Assembly (NCBI RefSeq): GCF_030013205.1
Contig: NZ_CP122648.1
Origin: Escherichia coli
Lineage (GTDB): Bacteria; Pseudomonadota; Gammaproteobacteria; Enterobacterales; Enterobacteriaceae
Length of the DNA stretch: 64,000 bases
Reading direction: 5' to 3' (one strand)
Part shown: positions 10,864 to 19,824 of the stretch, one piece after another
How positions within the stretch are numbered: the first letter of the stretch is position 1
How the letters are laid out: every line of letters begins with the position of its first letter
Notes under the pieces: generated by a model
What the model was told of the DNA's origin: nothing
The model's database searches: none
Seen by the model: the letters and a program-made list of their open reading frames with translations, nothing else
Position numbers and translations under genes: made by a program

Positions 10864-11085
<222 letters not shown>

Positions 11086-11338
11086 TTGTTTTACCGCCTG
11101 ATGGGCGAAGAGAAAGAACGAGTAAAAGGTCGGTTTAACCGGCCTTTTTATTTTGTGATATGTATGAAGTACTTTGGAAGTATAAGTCCATAACTTGTCT
11201 CGATGTAGATATACTGCACAACTTGTTTACAGTATGAGCAAACAATAATTATCATTAAAATTCTTCTTGACCGTTTTACTCCAACTCCCTATAGTAGCGC
11301 CCCGTTGCCACCCATGAGGTTTGGTAGCAAAACAATTT

Positions 11339-11426
11339 GGTGAGGTGTCCGAGTGGCTGAAGGAGCACGCCTGGAAAGTGTGTATACGGCAACGTATCGG
11401 GGGTTCGAATCCCCCCCTCACCGCCA
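11339..11426 (+). tRNA. serW: tRNA-Ser (anticodon GGA)
   Basis: GGTGAGGTGTCCGAGTGGCTGAAGG...CCTGGAAAGTG...GGGTTCGAATCCCCCCCTCACCGCCA; long variable arm; anticodon loop CU-GGA-AA. Confidence 0.9.
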
Positions 11427-11588
11427 TATTCAAAGAAGAGCTCGTACGAAAGTAGGGGCTTTTTTTTCGCATATTGCACACACCGGGGGGATGAGAAGCC
11501 CCGACCGGGGTTCGACAACTGGCGCAGCCAGTTGGACAGACCACGAACACAGTGAGTGGGCTGCCCGCAGGGCGAGCGAAGCGAGTCA

Positions 11589-11611
11589 ATCCCCCCCTCA
11601 CCGCCATATTT
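11589..11611 (+). repeat. Direct repeat of the last ~23 nt of serW plus flanking TATT (aatccccccctcaccgccatatt)
   Basis: Near-identical copy of 11404-11430 located ~185 bp downstream; each copy is followed by a related A-rich/ctcgtacgaaagta segment. Confidence 0.8.
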
Positions 11612-11617
11612 AAAGAA

Positions 11618-11647
11618 AAACTCGTACGAAAGTACGAGTTTTTTTTC
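11618..11647 (+). terminator. Rho-independent terminator-like hairpin (ctcgtac-gaaa-gtacgag followed by T8)
   Basis: Perfect 7 bp stem, 4 nt loop, U-run; a degenerate copy sits at 11432-11458. Confidence 0.6.
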
Positions 11648-11889
11648 GCATTTTATCTGCCTGTACGGCAGTGAACTCAAATACTACACGTTTAGTCCGT
11701 TATTAATAAAGCAAAACCATCTCATTTTCCTGCTACCACCCTTTTTTATCCTTACCTTCCCGCAGCACTAATTATCAACAACTTACCATCATCATCAAAA
11801 AAAGGGTCTGAACCTCCTCCACCCCATAAACAAAAAGTCCGTAACCTCTTTCGAGATTACGGACTTCACCAACCTACCTGACAATTAGA

Positions 11890-14166
11890 TTAATGCGCTG
11901 CTTCCGCCTTGTGCTTTTGTGCACTCTGGAATCCGTAAGTCAGCTCATTTTTCTCTTTATCCAGCGCGACGGTGACCTGACCGCCGTCCACCAGCGAACC
12001 AAACAACAGTTCGTTGGCGAGCGGTTTTTTCAGGTTGTCCTGGATGACACGCGCCATCGGACGTGCGCCCATTGCCCGGTCGTAACCTTTCTCGGCTAGC
12101 CAGTTACGCGCTTCCTGGCTCACTTCCAGAGAAACACCTTTCTGATCCAACTGAACCTGCAACTCGACGATGAATTTATCCACTACCTGATGGATCACGT
12201 CGGTTGACAGATGATCGAACCAGATAATGTTGTCGAGACGGTTACGAAACTCCGGCGTAAAGATCTTCTTGATCTCTTCCATCGCATCGGTGCTGTTGTC
12301 CTGGTGGATAAGACCAATCGATTTACGCTCAGTTTCTCGTACCCCAGCGTTGGTGGTCATCACCAATACCACGTTACGGAAGTCCGCTTTGCGTCCGTTG
12401 TTATCGGTCAGCGTACCGTTGTCCATCACCTGCAACAGAATATTGAACACGTCCGGGTGCGCTTTCTCGATTTCGTCCAGCAGCAGCACCGCATGTGGAT
12501 GCTTGATGACCGCATCAGTCAGCAAACCGCCCTGATCAAAACCAACGTATCCCGGAGGCGCACCAATCAGACGGCTGACGGTATGGCGTTCCATATACTC
12601 GGACATATCAAAGCGCAGAAGCTCAATGCCCAAAGCTTTCGAAAGCTGTAGCGTCACCTCTGTTTTCCCGACCCCGGTAGGGCCGGCAAACAGGAACGAA
12701 CCGACCGGTTTATGTTCGTGACCTAAACCTGCACGCGCCATCTTAATGGCTTCAGTCAGCGCCTCGATGGCTTTATCCTGACCGAAGACCAGCATTTTCA
12801 GGCGATCGCCGAGGTTTTTCAGGGTATCGCGGTCACTCTGAGAAACACTCTTCTCTGGAATGCGCGCAATACGGGCCACCACGGACTCAATATCCGCCAC
12901 ATTAACGGTTTTCTTGCGTTTGCTTACCGGCATCAGGCGTGCGCGAGCGCCCGCTTCGTCGATAACGTCAATGGCTTTATCCGGCAGATGACGATCGTTA
13001 ATGTATTTCACCGCCAGCTCTACCGCTGCACGCACCGCTTTTGCGGTATAACGCACGTCGTGGTGCGCTTCATACTTCGGTTTCAGGCCATTGATGATTT
13101 GAACAGTTTCTTCGATCGACGGTTCAGTAATATCAATTTTCTGGAAGCGACGCGCCAGAGCACGGTCTTTCTCGAAAATGTTGCTGAACTCCTGATAGGT
13201 TGTCGAACCAATTACGCGAATTTTACCGCTGGAGAGCAACGGTTTGATTAGGTTAGCCGCATCGACCTGACCACCAGACGCTGCACCCGCACCGATAATG
13301 GTGTGGATCTCATCAATAAACAGGATGCTGTTAGTGTCCTGCTCCAGCTGCTTGAGCAACGCTTTAAAACGTTTTTCAAAGTCGCCGCGATATTTTGTGC
13401 CCGCTAACAGAGAACCGATATCGAGAGAGTAAATCGTACAGTCAGCCATCACTTCCGGCACATCGCCCTGAACAATTCGCCAGGCAAGACCTTCTGCAAT
13501 CGCGGTTTTACCGACACCAGATTCCCCCACCAGCAGCGGGTTGTTTTTACGGCGACGGCAGAGAACCTGAATAGCACGCTCCAGCTCCTTCTCACGACCA
13601 ATCAGTGGGTCGATTCCGCCCACGCGCGCAAGCTGATTCAGGTTCGTCGTGAAATTCTCCATACGTTCCTCCCCACCAGCTTGTTCTTCGCTGTTTGGCT
13701 GGCTGCCAGGATCAGAAGACTGTGTCGGCTCGTCTTTACGCGTGCCATGAGAGATAAAGTTCACCACATCGAGACGGCTGACTTCATGTTTACGCAACAG
13801 ATATGCCGCCTGCGACTCCTGTTCGCTAAAGATAGCGACCAGAACGTTTGCACCGGTAACCTCATTGCGACCGGAGGACTGGACATGGAAGACCGCACGT
13901 TGCAGTACACGCTGAAAACTCAGCGTCGGCTGTGTGTCGCGCTCCTCTTCACTGGCAGGCAGAACAGGTGTGGTTTGTTCAATAAAGGCTTCCAGTTCCT
14001 GACGGAGCGCAACCAAATCCACAGAACACGCTTCCAGCGCCTCCCGGGCAGATGGGTTACTGAGCAGCGCCAGTAACAAGTGCTCGACGGTCATAAACTC
14101 ATGACGGTGCTCGCGCGCTCTGGCGAAAGCCATATTTAAACTGAGTTCCAGTTCTTGATTGAGCAT
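11890..14166 (-). CDS. clpA: ATP-dependent Clp protease ATP-binding subunit ClpA
   Basis: 758 aa from [24 protein letters not shown]; two AAA+ modules ([16 protein letters not shown]). Confidence 0.95.
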
Positions 14167-14196
14167 AGGCACCTCCCCCAATTTTTATGCCTGCAT

Positions 14197-14517
14197 TCAG
14201 GCTTTTTCTAGCGTACACAGCAATGGATGCTCATTCTCCCTCGCGTACTTGTTCACCATCGCCACTTTGGTTTCTGCAACCTCGGCGGTAAAGACTCCGC
14301 AAATGGCCTTCCCCTGGTAGTGAACAGCGAGCATCAATTGCGTTGCACGTTCTACATCATAAGAAAAGAATTTTTGTAACACGTCAATAACAAACTCCAT
14401 CGGAGTGTAATCATCATTGACTAATATCACTTTATACATAGATGGCGGTTTTAGCGCGTCGCGAACTTTTTCTTCCGCCAGTTGATCAAAGTCCAGCCAG
14501 TCGTTCGTTTTACCCAT
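14197..14517 (-). CDS. clpS: ClpA adaptor protein ClpS
   Basis: 106 aa [51 protein letters not shown]... Confidence 0.95.
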
Positions 14518-14603
14518 TGTCAGTTATCATCTTCGGTTACGGTTATCGGCAGAACGCCCTGCCGCTGACAAGAGCTTATTTGCCTGACCAATCTACTCCA
14601 CAT

Positions 14604-14622
14604 GATAGATAACTATCATTTA
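14604..14622. repeat. Putative attL core (gatagataactatcattta)
   Basis: 17/19 identical to 25213-25231. Confidence 0.5.
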
Positions 14623-14691
14623 TATCATTTAGTTAATTAGTCTTTATTTTTCATTATGTTGCAAATAACAACCCCGTCAAAAACAGTGATA

Positions 14692-14714
14692 TTAACTACA
14701 CCATTAACTACACC
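14692..14714. promoter_or_regulatory. Putative integrase arm-type sites (ttaactacaccattaactacacc) followed by cgaacaa repeats
   Basis: Tandem 11-mer direct repeat; a near-identical copy lies at 25069-25091 just upstream of the int start. Confidence 0.45.
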
Positions 14715-15303
14715 GCTTCACGAACAATATCGAACAACCGCGAACAAAGATCAACACGCTTTAATCATTATCATTTTCCGGCTATCCGTCATGAAGCTGG
14801 TGGATGATCTGCGTGGTGATTTCCACCATTCAGAGCAGGGGCGGTCATCATGACCATGCCATAACAAAAACCCCATATTCGTGGTTTTTCTGTGTCGGGG
14901 CTATTCTGCTGTTGCCGTGCTGGTGGATATTCTCCGGTATGCGGCTCCCCATATCGGCATCAGGCCCACCAGCGTGAAGCGTTTTTCATTTTTCGCGGGT
15001 ATAAAAAATCGATGGGGCGGGCAGTCCTGAAGACGTCAGGGTACGGAGATTTGACCCGCCCCTCCCTGTGCATGAGCACAATAAGTAACCGAAGGCGGAA
15101 TTCCGCCCTCGGTACTTACATATGAGAAACGATATTTCTTCCACCGATACCCTTTATTTGGGTATTGCGAGTAAGCCCCAAAATCTGGGTGTTACTCTTA
15201 CTACCCAAACTACGGGTAGTTTCCGTAGTTTCATGGTCGAGTTGCAAATCTGCAACTCACCCACCAGCCAACGCAATTTTGCGTTATCGGGAATATCAGC
15301 AAG

Positions 15304-15591
15304 TTACCGCCGCAGTCGTTCCGGCTTCTTCCACTGGTAAGTATTTTTCGCGCTCTCCCTCCGTTGTTGAGAACGGCGACGGTATGCCAGCAACTCAAGG
15401 ACTCTGGTTCGTATGTTGCGCATATCCACGCCGTTAAGCTCAATACCATCACGGCGCATCACCTCAGCAACAACACGCGCGTAATTTTCAGCGGTGACTG
15501 TATCCGGCTGCGCGGCCTGTTCGTCAGCCAACTGGCTGATTCCACCAGCACAGCGGATTAATCGCAGTATTTCAGATTCGGTCATTATCAT
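15304..15591 (-). CDS. Hypothetical protein (95 aa), island packaging module
   Basis: ORF overlaps the terS-like stop by 4 nt; no recognisable motif. Confidence 0.45.
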   Translation of the reverse strand: MIMTESEILRLIRCAGGISQLADEQAAQPDTVTAENYARVVAEVMRRDGIELNGVDMRNIRTRVLELLAYRRRSQQRRESAKNTYQWKKPERLRR

Positions 15592-16073
15592 GCCTGTTTT
15601 GCGACCTCATTCACTACGTCATTTTTTACCATCCGGCTGATAATCTGATTACACAAATCGTCAATAATTGACTGCACTCTGTTTACTGCCATCGGTTTAA
15701 GCCCGGCATCACGTGCCAGAATATTGGGGAGTTTTGCCAGTTCCTCGCTTACGATTTCCCCCCATATAGCCATCTCTTTTCGCACATCATCGGCGGGTAT
15801 GAGTTGCGCCGTTTCCTGTTCGAACTTGAGGCGTTCACGTTCGGACTGATACCAGGCCTTACGGTCTTGTGGCTCCATTTCTTCCAGTGATGCCGGAACG
15901 GGAAGATCAAGAAAACAGGTCAGAATGTCAGTCACCCGATAGAGTTTCAGCTTGTCATGCCCTCCGGCTGGCTGGATGTTTTTCAGCCTTGCCGCCGCAG
16001 TCTGACGACATATTCCCGCTATCGCCGCCAGTTGATTAATGTTCAGCATCAGATTTTTCAGTTCTCGATCCAT
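15588..16073 (-). CDS. Phage small terminase-like protein (Nu1-like HTH DNA-packaging protein)
   Basis: Start placed at MDRELKNLM (GGAGCGGGT SD); N-terminal HTH LNINQLAAIAGICRQTAAARL; layout resembles lambda Nu1. Confidence 0.55.
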   Translation of the reverse strand: MDRELKNLMLNINQLAAIAGICRQTAAARLKNIQPAGGHDKLKLYRVTDILTCFLDLPVPASLEEMEPQDRKAWYQSERERLKFEQETAQLIPADDVRKEMAIWGEIVSEELAKLPNILARDAGLKPMAVNRVQSIIDDLCNQIISRMVKNDVVNEVAKQA

Positions 16074-16226
16074 ACCCGCTCCAGAATGTTTTAAACATGC
16101 ATCTTGCGAACAACTTTCAGAAGAGGTCAAAAAATGCGCTATATGTTGAGCATAAAACAAGCAAAATTAACATGCCAAAAATAAAAATACTTAAAATTCA
16201 ATACAATATGAAGATGATGATGACGA

Positions 16227-16306
16227 ATGAAAATGCAAAAACTAGCCTTTTTCCGCGCCGCTCCCGCCCCGTGGCAGACCACTCCACCGGGAGGACCCGT
16301 AAAAAA
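16227..16306. repeat. 80 bp conserved element, copy 1 (~92% identical to 18761-18840)
   Basis: atgaaaatgcaaaaac..ccgggaggacccgtaaaaaag; lies between the capsid terminator and terS. Confidence 0.8.
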
Positions 16307-16324
16307 GGCGGCTGTCGCCGCCCT
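16299..16324 (-). terminator. Rho-independent terminator after the protease-capsid gene
   Basis: Minus strand ggcggcgacagccgcc followed by ttttttta. Confidence 0.6.
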
Positions 16325-16329
16325 TGTTG

Positions 16330-18243
16330 TCATGCTCCACTCGATTTCAGTAATCCGCGATAATCGAGGGCCGCGACACCTGCATCTATGCGCACTTTCC
16401 AGGCGACACCATCAACAGTAAAGCCCACCTGCTCCTCAAGATATGGCGTATCCATACCATCAAGATAAGCGACTTCTATTGTGTCCATCCCCTTAGCTGC
16501 GGCTACATACCATTCCTTGCTATTGGCCTTATCAAGACGTGGCTCAACAATTACTTCTGCCATATCTTTCACCACGTTAATGATGCCGGGGTTCTGATTG
16601 ATAGTGCTCTCATCACCAACCGGAAAGACTGATGACGATGACAGAATGGCGCGACGCGCGGCAGATTCCAGCGCGGCAGGGACCAGAACAAAAGCAGGGG
16701 TAATATTCAGTGAGTCGCCGTTAGCATCCTCCTGGAGGCGCATCAGCTTACGGGCTTCATCAAGCCCCACCATGTCCATATCCTTCGCAATAAGATTTTT
16801 ATGATCGGCATGGAATAACGCTTTACCATCCGTAAATTTGCCGTTGCTGGTTAACAGAAGATAAACCAGATTACCTACTGTTCTGGCGGCCGCACGCCCC
16901 ATCGCCATGGGGATTGTAGTTAACTGGGTCAGGTCATCGTTGATAATGGCCTGACGGGTAACAGAAAAAATATTACCGTATGTGGCCAGCGCAATAGGTA
17001 CACCTTTATCGCTGGTGGTGATGTATTTATATTCCGCACCTTCCGGTACTTTATCCAGCTTTGAAAAACCATTCAGACCAACGCGCTTTGCTTCATGAAA
17101 GTTTGAAAGCGATCCGGTACGCGTCCATTTCTGGAACGTTTCGCCGCTGTCCTGCCAGCCTTTCAGCACTGATTTTTCAGCACCACCAGCCAGAATATGA
17201 GAAAAATCGCTGCTGCTGTGTGTGAAAGCTGCATTAACGACCTGCGAGCGATTTAAAAAACTGCCAACACTGATACCACGATCAGTTAGTGATGCCTGGG
17301 CCATTTCAAAAAGGCTCATCATCGCGTAAGGATTTCCCCGCTCTGGGCGTTCATACCCAAGACGAGAATAAAGCCCCTGACGAATTGCATCGCCTGTTAT
17401 GTTCCCGTTACCGGCATAAATATGAGTCGGGATATTTTTATTGGATGGCGTGGACTCGCGCCCCAGCTCGTTCAACAACTTTTCACGGGCCATCTCCGGT
17501 GTACATGATGCATCCTCCAGGCACGCCATTTTGATCCCGTCGTAACGACTGCCGAACAGGCTAAACACTTCACTTATTCCGTTGATGCGCTTCTGTTCAT
17601 TACCAGCAATATTGGCTGCTCCCTGTGGCGGGGTAATCATTCCTTTAATGGTTTCAGGCATGTGTGAAAAATCTCCTGTGCGTTTCGATTCAATTCGCGC
17701 CATTGCTGTGACAGATGGCAACAATTCATCAGCAAAACCGTGCTTAAGGCATTCTTTCCCGTCCATCCAGGTTTCATCTTCCAGCATGGCGGTAATTTCC
17801 TGTGCTGATTTGCCCGTTTTTCTGGCATAAGCAGGGACTAACACGGTTTCCACCTTATCCAGCAAATCAGCATAATCACGCATATCACCAGCATTTCCGC
17901 CAGAGATACCCCACGGCTTATGTATCATCATCATGGCGTTTTCCGGCATCACAACACGATCGCCAGCCATTGCGACAACCGAAGCCATTGAAGCCGCAAC
18001 ACCATCGATATAAACCGTAATTTCTGCCGGATGATTCCGTAACAGGTTATAGATGGCGATGCCTTCAAACACGTCACCACCTGGCGAATGGATCCGCAGG
18101 TCGATATGTGAGACATCGCCCAGGGCTTTCAGGTCTTCCGCAAACTGCTTCGCGGTAATACCGAAGCCGCCAATTTCTTCATAGATGGATATTTCTGCCG
18201 CTCCGCGAACACCCAGCGCCTTAATGGTGTACCAGTGATTCAT
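16330..18243 (-). CDS. Fused prohead protease (ClpP-like) / major capsid protein
   Basis: 637 aa; N-terminal ~200 aa with ClpP-like serine-protease motif (IHSPGGDV); C-terminal ~430 aa of major-capsid size and character. Confidence 0.7.
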   Translation of the reverse strand: MNHWYTIKALGVRGAAEISIYEEIGGFGITAKQFAEDLKALGDVSHIDLRIHSPGGDVFEGIAIYNLLRNHPAEITVYIDGVAASMASVVAMAGDRVVMPENAMMMIHKPWGISGGNAGDMRDYADLLDKVETVLVPAYARKTGKSAQEITAMLEDETWMDGKECLKHGFADELLPSVTAMARIESKRTGDFSHMPETIKGMITPPQGAANIAGNEQKRINGISEVFSLFGSRYDGIKMACLEDASCTPEMAREKLLNELGRESTPSNKNIPTHIYAGNGNITGDAIRQGLYSRLGYERPERGNPYAMMSLFEMAQASLTDRGISVGSFLNRSQVVNAAFTHSSSDFSHILAGGAEKSVLKGWQDSGETFQKWTRTGSLSNFHEAKRVGLNGFSKLDKVPEGAEYKYITTSDKGVPIALATYGNIFSVTRQAIINDDLTQLTTIPMAMGRAAARTVGNLVYLLLTSNGKFTDGKALFHADHKNLIAKDMDMVGLDEARKLMRLQEDANGDSLNITPAFVLVPAALESAARRAILSSSSVFPVGDESTINQNPGIINVVKDMAEVIVEPRLDKANSKEWYVAAAKGMDTIEVAYLDGMDTPYLEEQVGFTVDGVAWKVRIDAGVAALDYRGLLKSSGA

Positions 18244-18449
18244 TGCTCCCCCCCAGATGCAAAACCATTCTTATCAAGCCACGCGTTAACCGCGTGTCTG
18301 ACAATCTGCGCCGCACCTGGTAATGGTTGGTCAGGATGATGATTTATGTGGTCGATCCTGTACTGCTTAAGGCGCATAACGGTCTGCGCATCCAGATGAA
18401 CGGAACCACCTTTTACCTCGCCTGTGTTCAGGTCGTTAATACAATTCAC
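18240..18449 (-). CDS. Hypothetical small protein (69 aa), translationally coupled to the capsid gene
   Basis: GTG start with AAGAGGAAG SD; stop overlaps the capsid ATG. Confidence 0.5.
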   Translation of the reverse strand: MNCINDLNTGEVKGGSVHLDAQTVMRLKQYRIDHINHHPDQPLPGAAQIVRHAVNAWLDKNGFASGGEQ

Positions 18450-18549
18450 AGTAACTTCCTCTTACTGACTAAACTGCGCGCATTATTGATCGATAAAAGT
18501 GGTAGATAAACATATTTCTATCATAAAAATAGATTAATCAGATTCAGAC

Positions 18550-18575
18550 ACAAAAAAGCCGGAGAGAATCCGGCA
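18550..18575 (-). terminator. Rho-independent terminator-like hairpin (gccggattctctccggc followed by T6)
   Basis: Minus-strand stem-loop plus U-run ~100 nt upstream of the 69 aa ORF. Confidence 0.55.
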
Positions 18576-18760
18576 TAAATATCCCGCCATCTGAACACGT
18601 TTTGCACAGGCAACTCCATCTGGCAGGTGAAAAACAAATTTATTTATATATTTCAATTAATTGCAAACTGGTCTAATGACAGGGAGAAAAAAATATTGTA
18701 CAGGTGAAAACAGAAATAACTTTTAATTATCAATAAATTACTACACATGCTGCCGCCGCC

Positions 18761-18840
18761 ATGAAAATGCAAAAACCAGCCTTTTTCCGCGACGCTCCCG
18801 CCCCGTGGCAGGTCACTACACCGGGAGGACCCATAAAAAA
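18761..18840. repeat. 80 bp conserved element, copy 2
   Basis: ~92% identical to 16227-16306. Confidence 0.8.
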
Positions 18841-18858
18841 GCCGGATTGCTCCGGCTT
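18833..18858 (-). terminator. Rho-independent terminator after the SSB-like gene
   Basis: Minus strand gccggagcaatccggc followed by ttttttat. Confidence 0.6.
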
Positions 18859-18872
18859 CTGTTACTCGTTGC

Positions 18873-19295
18873 TTAAAACGGTATGTTATCCCCGTACGGA
18901 TCATCATTTCCCGCCTGTTGTTTTGCTCTGCTCAGTGCATCAGTAGCCTGCCCCTGTTGGCCTTTTTTGCCGCCCGGTCGCGCCGTTCTCGCACTGATTA
19001 CGCTGTCTGCGATAACCTGCCAGCCCTGCCGCGTCTCCCCGTTCTGTCCGGTCCACTGGCTCACCTGCATGTTACCCGCCACGCTCAGGAGTTCACCCTT
19101 GCGGTGCTTTGCCAGTGCTTCGGCCTGTCTGCCAAACGCCAGGACGGATAACCACATCGTCGCCGTTCCGTCATCTGCCTGGCTGCACGGAAGTGGGACC
19201 GCCATACTCGCCATCGTCATTTGTGTACCCTTGCTGGTGGTCTTTAACTGCGGGTCAGCCACCAGCCGCCCGTAAGCCGCTATCTGTGCTGTCAT
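18873..19295 (-). CDS. Single-stranded DNA-binding protein-like
   Basis: 140 aa; OB-fold-like N-terminus (GRLVADPQLK...), Gly/Gln-rich tail ending DDPYGDNIPF, resembling the SSB acidic tip DDDIPF. Confidence 0.65.
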   Translation of the reverse strand: MTAQIAAYGRLVADPQLKTTSKGTQMTMASMAVPLPCSQADDGTATMWLSVLAFGRQAEALAKHRKGELLSVAGNMQVSQWTGQNGETRQGWQVIADSVISARTARPGGKKGQQGQATDALSRAKQQAGNDDPYGDNIPF

Positions 19296-19537
19296 GCTGT
19301 CTGCTCTCCGGTTTTAACGTTGATGGTTGTCACCTGTTCCGCTTCGGCAATCTCCCGTTCTGTCAGCGTGGCAAAGTTTGCAGCTGCCGTTGTCATGAAT
19401 GAGCTAATCAGTTCGGGATGTGCTTTCGCATATCCTTCCCCGGCGTTGCGGTCGATGATTTTTATCGACACCCTTAACCAGTGTTCCGTCAAATCAAGGG
19501 CGTGCGATTGTGATTTTTTTGTGTGCTTCGCTGTCAT
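19292..19537 (-). CDS. Hypothetical protein (81 aa)
   Basis: ORF between the ori and the SSB-like gene; overlaps the ssb start by 4 nt. Confidence 0.45.
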   Translation of the reverse strand: MTAKHTKKSQSHALDLTEHWLRVSIKIIDRNAGEGYAKAHPELISSFMTTAAANFATLTEREIAEAEQVTTINVKTGEQTA

Positions 19538-19584
19538 AGGCTTTATCTCACAGCAGTAAATTAAAATTTTTGCGTTTTAACCCT

Positions 19585-19812
19585 TCACCTGTTCACCTTT
19601 TGATATTTTATCTTTTAATTCATAATGTTAAGGGGTGAACAGTTTCACAAAAACTATTCACCAACTGTTCACCACTGTTCACCCTTGAAGCTCAATAAAC
19701 AATCAAAAAGGTGAACAGTGAATAGTTTGGTGAACAGTTCATAAATAACTGTTCACCCTATAACATACTGATACAAAAGATATTTATGACAGGGTGAACA
19801 GTGGTGAACAGT
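19585..19812. promoter_or_regulatory. Putative replication origin: iteron cluster (at least 9 copies of GTGAACAG/CTGTTCAC) in AT-rich DNA
   Basis: Repeats at about 19587, 19634, 19665, 19676, 19710, 19729, 19750, 19794, 19803 in both orientations, immediately 3' of the primase gene. Confidence 0.65.
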
Positions 19813-19824
19813 TATTCCATAAGT

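Follow-up and report, generated by a model that had tools for sequence, protein, structure and literature searches.

How much of its native transcriptional input does clpS keep when a mobile element settles directly upstream of it? The question arises from the 64,000-nt stretch of Escherichia coli DNA analyzed here (contig NZ_CP122648.1; the window), in which clpS, encoding the 106-aa adaptor of ClpAP (14197 to 14517, minus strand, an open reading frame that is also annotated in matching genomes), and the annotated downstream gene clpA (11890 to 14166, minus strand) are separated from cspD (25449 to 25673, plus strand, ATG at 25449) by an island. The original prediction stated that the island separates the divergently transcribed clpS and cspD by 10.6 kb, that about 90 bp of native sequence remains upstream of clpS and about 215 bp upstream of cspD, and that native promoter elements of clpS may have been displaced or replaced. 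We consider it likely that a phage-inducible chromosomal island (PICI), a phage satellite, lying inside the leader of clpS-clpA parts the operon from its dominant promoter and leaves clpS with a weaker proximal promoter, the −35 hexamer of which is regenerated by the att core. Under this explanation, to which that judgment applies as a whole, the flagged 103 bp consist of the leader of clpS and a single PICI junction.

The junction bounds were set by base-by-base comparison with a K-12-type genome (locus L001), walked upstream from the clpS ATG (14517). The 102 nt at 14518 to 14619 are identical to K-12, or 106 nt if one mismatch is allowed: position 14620 is T where K-12 has C, 14621 to 14623 match, and from 14624 onward the island and K-12 sequences are unrelated. 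On the cspD side, native sequence resumes at 25218 (231 nt of perfect identity up to the cspD ATG at 25449) or, with one mismatch, at 25212 (237 nt). With a K-12 cspD-clpS intergenic region of 322 bp, the island locus must contain 21 bp in duplicate. Once this repeat is excluded, 85 bp of unique native upstream sequence is left to clpS and 216 bp to cspD, and both of the predicted lengths are thus borne out, the former as 85 nt of unique leader plus a 21-nt copy of the att core. The retained unique leader (14518 to 14602, minus strand, identical to K-12) contains a transcription start at 14583 with its −10 hexamer and minor starts at 14601 and 14527 (K-12 922,052 and 922,126); when the retained 66-nt clpS leader was folded, its structure did not go beyond chance (z = −1.0). 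The 10.6-kb separation was likewise confirmed, with direct repeats 10,609 bp apart and a tyrosine integrase gene beside one of them. The interruption is not a chance arrangement: an integrase gene lies beside a repeat, the locus is uninterrupted in 5,057 of 5,424 complete E. coli genomes, and all of the approximately 365 interrupted ones break at the same core.

The two copies of the att core form direct repeats that are identical at 19 of 21 positions, with 10,588 bp between them. The clpS-side copy (14603 to 14623) reads as a B arm GATAGAT, a 7-bp overlap AACTATC, and a P' arm ATTTAT, and the cspD-side copy (25212 to 25232) reads as a P arm GATAAAT, the same overlap AACTATC, and a B' arm ATCTAT; the two mismatches between the copies arise because the island contributes arms of its own, GATAAAT and ATTTAT. 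The attB is a 7-7-7 palindrome (GATAGAT, AACTATC, and ATCTATC), the layout of a classic tyrosine-recombinase core. The cspD-clpS site has been catalogued as a PICI attC with the core ATGATAGTTAT, occupied by EcCIIHE3034 and EcCI18098 (Fillol-Salom 2018, ISME J, Table S1, PMC6092414), and this published 11-bp core corresponds to window positions 14609 to 14619 read on the minus strand and occurs at both junctions. In K-12, the att core occupies 922,030 to 922,050, within the clpS-clpA leader. The end of yljB (25225 to 25299, minus strand), with its final codons and stop codon, extends into the cspD-side copy of this core. The gene encodes a validated small protein of 24 aa (PMC8921622, PMC10117436); it is intact and an exact match, and is now followed by int rather than by clpS. 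A PhoB ChIP site, TGTCACATTCCTGTCAAT (PMC10294691), lies at about 25251 to 25268, inside the yljB coding sequence, and has thus remained with cspD. The island end on the clpS side, an attP arm (14624 to 14780, minus strand), carries two arm-type repeats GGTGTAGTTAAT at 14691 to 14714, CGAACA repeats, and a stretch of 85% A+T; paired GGTGTAGTTAAT repeats are located near both island ends. The island would thus have entered by site-specific tyrosine-recombinase recombination into an attB flanked by the stop codon of yljB on one side and by the proximal promoter of clpS on the other.

Judged by its gene content, the 10.6-kb insertion is a Gram-negative PICI of a known type at a known site, and we assign it to this class because its gene organization matches that described for the class (PMC6092414). 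In the PICI body (14624 to 25211, minus strand), all annotated genes are codirectional with clpS except for one small YlcI/YnfO-family open reading frame. The integrase gene int (23806 to 25044, ATG at 25044; Pfam Phage_integrase and Arm-DNA-bind_3) comes first, and alpA (23177 to 23386; Pfam Phage_AlpA), an icd-like gene, a DUF4222 gene, a primase/D5 gene (19825 to 21657; Pfam D5_N/Pox_D5/DUF5906), and ssb (18873 to 19295) are all on the minus strand, so that the integrase, AlpA, and primase/replication functions typical of PICIs appear in unidirectional order on one strand. Immediately downstream of the primase/D5 gene, at least eight copies of GGTGAACAGT in direct and inverted orientation (19610 to 19826) form an iteron cluster that is probably the replication origin of the island. 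A gene encoding a fusion of a ClpP-like prohead protease with a major capsid protein (16330 to 18243), a gene for a DUF1441 protein (15588 to 16073), and a 95-aa open reading frame (15304 to 15591), also on the minus strand, lie toward clpS. Gram-negative PICIs are typically 12 to 15 kb, and the catalogued entries at cspD-clpS are 10.5 to 10.8 kb (PMC6092414), a range that includes the 10,588 bp found here. The site also behaves as a PICI-specific attC unused by prophages, as about 365 of the approximately 367 interrupted genomes have a homologous island arm.

Annotation and Pfam searches detected no lysis, tail, portal, or large-terminase genes in the island. A capsid-forming PICI (cf-PICI) is described as encoding every protein required for making its own small capsid and for DNA packaging (10.1101/2022.09.08.507074); assignment to this group was rejected, as the island has the protease-capsid fusion and the DUF1441 protein only, without portal, large-terminase, or connector genes. 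A PDB sequence search with the DUF1441 protein returned no match and hence no tie to the solved PICI Rpp protein. Apart from these genes, the island contains two copies of a 94-nt element (16227 to 16320 and 18761 to 18854, 88% identity), one after the capsid-protease gene and the other after ssb. Read on the minus strand, the element comprises a clean intrinsic terminator and then conserved GC-rich nested hairpins ending in ...GCATTTTCAT; it has no Rfam match and may represent a regulated terminator, an antiterminator, or a small RNA. An Rfam search of 11000 to 26500 at the gathering threshold found nothing in the junction or the island, and its only matches were one tRNA and one RtT; these lie at 11339 to 11606, where a tRNA (tRNA-Ser in related genomes) is directly followed by the RtT match (47.2 bits versus a cutoff of 45).

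The island junction is present in about 365 of 5,426 complete E. coli genomes (6.7%), at 87 to 100% identity, and these 365 account for essentially all interruptions of the cspD-clpS locus. The converse history, in which the island is ancestral and was deleted in K-12, was ruled out by the att duplication, the integrase gene, and the 93% of sites that are empty. The nine junction variants aligned show no differences between the clpS ATG and the core. EcCIIHE3034 and EcCI18098 share with this island the site, the core, the orientation, the size of 10.5 to 10.8 kb, the identical clpS junction, and a common backbone of int, alpA, the icd-like gene, the DUF4222 gene, the primase gene, and ssb; over the integrase region, this island and that of IHE3034 are about 93% identical in nucleotide sequence. 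Published cspD-clpS islands also carry capsid-type genes (the IHE3034 island was inspected), and the islands of MS6198, GB089, and IHE3034 are mosaic relatives whose packaging modules differ: in IHE3034 and GB089, the capsid, decoration, and small-terminase genes are separate, whereas this island has the protease-capsid fusion and DUF1441. Neither the element nor its attachment site is thus new to the catalogue, and the copy described here adds a new mosaic member to the family.

Several single genomes deserve mention. Over most of the island, identity to the closest complete genome, that of strain Res13-Lact-PEB08-01, is 99.5%; it is only 96% in a block on the int side, and no alignment was returned for window positions 22532 to 22802; the island of the window is 12 bp shorter overall. 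These differences suggest recent mosaic exchange within the island family. In strain ZH063 (locus L011, 3001 to 3189), a homologous island arm of 87% identity lies beside bioD and P27-type small- and large-terminase genes, without the clpS leader, and looks like a related satellite end at another chromosomal site. In IHE3034 (locus L005, 11540 to 12701), TAAATT replaces TAGATT as the proximal clpS −10 hexamer, and the annotation of clpA indicates a frameshift; the two changes could reflect compensation, decay, or sequencing error.

What the insertion means for clpS depends on where the operon is transcribed from, and all of the start maps behind our preferred explanation come from K-12, an island-free strain. 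In the U00096.2 frame, with the clpS start at 922,136, Cappable-seq (PMC4782308) gives relative read scores for clpS-strand starts of 277.4 at 921,583, 2.9 at 921,856, 2.9 at 922,052, 35.85 at 922,070, 4.0 at 922,126, 40.9 at 922,231, and 14.4 at 922,301. Kim 2012 (PMC3415461) reports a single clpS start at 921,583 (368 reads, 553-nt leader), clpA starts at 922,231 and 922,301 with 10 and 23 reads, and a cspD start at 921,899 on the opposite strand. SMRT-Cappable-seq (PMC6131387) places the clpS-clpA operon starts at 922,359, 922,632, and 922,665 (U00096.3); the first is the same position as 921,583 in U00096.2, and the latter two are at −280 and −247. Two checks support the coordinate frames: the promoter strings from the publications have exact matches in the window, and proper −10 hexamers stand at the expected distance from the mapped starts.

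In island-free E. coli, as mapped in K-12, the main clpS-clpA transcript therefore begins beyond cspD, runs antisense through it, crosses yljB, and reaches clpS. Its start, the strongest on the clpS strand, is 553 nt upstream of clpS. The same start lies 6 nt past the cspD stop codon (25449 to 25679 on the minus strand of the window), so that the transcript is antisense to the whole of cspD and the supposedly divergent transcripts overlap fully. Treating clpS and cspD as simple divergent neighbors hence gives an incomplete picture, and the original prediction needs correcting in that the main promoter is beyond cspD and outside the 322-bp region. A distal transcript of this kind may in part serve mainly as cspD antisense RNA, or it may be attenuated ahead of clpS. 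One alternative is that the 921,583 start mainly yields cspD antisense RNA or yljB mRNA and little ClpS, in which case its displacement would affect cspD and yljB regulation and int instead. The antisense overlap and the leader of about 380 nt ahead of yljB are compatible with such a role, as are the SMRT-Cappable-seq rows, in which only 72 of 236 and 20 of 64 reads end at the clpA terminator. However, the 72 reads of the first row (M9 sheet), which run from 922,359 to 925,600, are single molecules that span clpS and clpA (b0881 and b0882) in full; Term-seq (Adams 2021, PMC7815308) lists no clpS-strand 3' end between the 921,583 start and clpS; and Kim 2012 reports no other clpS start. We regard this alternative as unlikely.

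In the window, all three K-12 operon starts lie beyond the att core, on its cspD side: the dominant promoter at 25679 to 25729 (minus strand, start at 25679, −10 hexamer CACAAT, with its 51-nt promoter string 100% conserved) and the minor starts at 25406 and 25373 (minus strand; K-12 921,856 and 921,889 in U00096.2, from SMRT-Cappable-seq and Cappable-seq). The island therefore displaces them from clpS by 10.6 kb. They now point through antisense-cspD and yljB into the island arm and int, and a hairpin scan detected no terminator-like hairpin between them and int; the cspD-antisense transcript would thereby be uncoupled from clpS in the island strain. The cspD gene keeps its own mapped promoter (TTGACG-16-TAAATT, 25327 to 25354) intact, together with its 5' UTR (25363 to 25448, plus strand; the start at 25363 is K-12 921,899 of Kim 2012) and 131 to 137 bp upstream of its own start.

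What clpS retains is a proximal promoter on the minus strand, with a start at 14583 (−66; K-12 922,070), a −10 hexamer TAGATT at 14590 to 14595, and a −35 hexamer ATGATA at 14614 to 14619. It has the features of a sigma-70 promoter, namely, a 5'-triphosphate start in K-12 Cappable-seq, TAGATT at −12 to −7, ATGATA at −36 to −31, and an 18-nt spacer, and its sequence is identical in the window. The −35 hexamer lies entirely inside the core segment common to attB and attP and is kept because integration regenerates the duplicated att core. Island-specific sequence sets in at base 14620, position −37 of this promoter, and the flagged interval therefore ends exactly at the end of the −35 hexamer. 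The clpA gene also retains two promoters internal to clpS, with starts at 14422 and 14352 (minus strand; K-12 922,231 and 922,301 in Cappable-seq and Kim 2012). The prediction that clpS promoter elements were displaced or replaced thus stands for the three mapped K-12 starts, which are displaced, and for the native sequence upstream of −37, which is replaced, and does not extend to the proximal −10 and −35 hexamers, which are intact. The counterpossibility raised with it, that known clpS promoters map within the retained ~90 bp, holds for the −66 start (score 35.9 versus 277) and not for the dominant one.

The preferred explanation can then be set out as follows. As the sequence and the published K-12 maps show, the PICI is integrated codirectionally with the operon inside the 553-nt leader of clpS-clpA, and the dominant (−553) and minor (−280 and −247) promoters are moved 10.6 kb away from clpS, where they face yljB and then int. 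With only the −66 promoter left to clpS, and the two promoters inside clpS left to clpA, clpS and much of clpA would lose most of their transcriptional input, unless the AT-rich arm or an outward island promoter compensates. Host transcription probably enters int, and the native operon would be re-formed if the island excised. Read counts at start sites do not equate to mRNA or protein output, and the −66 start was seen in one of three K-12 start data sets (Cappable-seq only), which makes its strength uncertain either way.

We also weighed whether the insertion is neutral for clpS transcription, the proximal promoter being enough, perhaps aided by an outward site or by the AT-rich arm in the role of an UP element, with an att core that evolved to rebuild the promoter as elements targeting tRNA genes do for the tRNA 3' end. 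Its −10 and −35 hexamers are fully intact in all nine aligned junctions, and the island is common (365 genomes). Further, the flank from −37 to −70 is 85% A+T in the island arm versus 50% natively, where it is the end of yljB, and, in the manner of an UP element, this new flank could make the proximal promoter more active. In addition, the region's best consensus match, the promoter-like site TTGACG-16-CATAAT (14653 to 14680, minus strand), matches 10 of 12 consensus positions, points toward clpS from 129 nt ahead of its ATG, and has an invariant TTGAC in the nine island variants. Against neutrality, the proximal start draws about eightfold fewer Cappable-seq reads than the distal one in K-12 and is absent from Kim 2012 and from the operon starts of SMRT-Cappable-seq, and the second hexamer of the island-end site varies among the nine variants, including at position 2, the most critical one (CATAAT, CACAAT, CGTAAT, CGCAAT, CTCAAT, and CATAGT). 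The number of promoter-like sites in the island is also not above chance. Given a −10 that is not conserved and the lack of enrichment for such sites, we keep the outward site as a weak lead only; in the circular form of the island, it would be placed about 220 nt upstream of int and could equally be an int promoter. Taken together, neutrality seems to us a real but lesser possibility.

A further alternative is that clpS is transcribed by read-through from the codirectional island genes or from the distal host promoter across the whole island, given that every annotated island gene but one small open reading frame, as well as the displaced host promoters, faces clpS. At least four intrinsic-terminator-like hairpins, however, lie on the clpS strand between int and clpS (18858 to 18836, 18574 to 18558, 16322 to 16302, and 15113 to 15088), the last of which, located after the last island gene (15088 to 15113, minus strand), is strong, with 11 pairs, 8 of them G-C. 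Because these hairpins intervene, transcription from within the island would not be expected to reach clpS, and island read-through as the main supply of clpS was rejected on this basis. PICI operons are also reported to be silent until induction by a helper phage (PMC6092414). Transcription of clpS across the island thus appears very improbable.

Under the preferred explanation, in which the operon is parted from its dominant promoter, the consequences would extend beyond this strain. ClpS and ClpA set N-degron and ClpAP proteolysis, and if the island removes most of the operon input, about 1 in 15 E. coli genomes would differ in this pathway in a manner invisible to gene-content comparison; the island-bearing genomes include O157:H7, O145:H28, and ExPEC strains. 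The stable carriage of the island in about 7% of genomes, successful lineages included, implies that any loss of ClpS and ClpA is tolerated or compensated. More speculatively, and with considerable doubt, we suggest that a PICI at cspD-clpS might act as a reversible promoter swap, in which ClpS and ClpA are lowered and N-degron and ClpAP proteolysis is reduced in about 7% of E. coli, the host promoter feeds yljB and then int, an island-end promoter that serves int in the excised circle instead points into clpS, and helper-induced excision restores full ClpSA expression. If the island does remove most of the operon input, the locus would also provide a clean natural example of an att core placed so as to save a −35 hexamer and the stop codon of a small open reading frame while splitting a long 5' leader.

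Main-text searches for literature linking cspD and clpS with integrases or islands returned nothing, the link appearing only in Table S1 of PMC6092414. That paper, in its main text and searched supplements, names the site only as "cspD-clpS," without relating it to clpS promoters or to yljB. No report was found in the literature searched that relates the att core to the −35 hexamer, the core to the yljB stop codon, or the site to the long leader of the operon.

Several known systems offer points of comparison. Among integrative elements at tRNA 3' ends, which use P4-like and other integrases, attP carries a copy of the end of the target, and the duplicated core rebuilds the host sequence on one side. 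This PICI resembles them in that the core duplicate rebuilds the proximal clpS −35 hexamer and the yljB stop codon; it differs in that its target is a promoter and leader region, where such rebuilding cannot restore promoters further upstream. Regulatory-switch prophages ("active lysogeny") excise reversibly, and the end promoters of ICEs (Pcirc of ICEclc) drive int only after circularization. Similarly, excision of this PICI could restore the host operon, and its outward site would sit upstream of int in the circle, although, unlike Pcirc of ICEclc, this promoter-like end site is poorly conserved in its −10. As with a PICI residing in a helper-phage late gene, the element is co-oriented inside a transcription unit whose parts are rejoined only on excision; here, however, the interrupted unit is the leader of a host housekeeping operon rather than a late gene of the helper phage.
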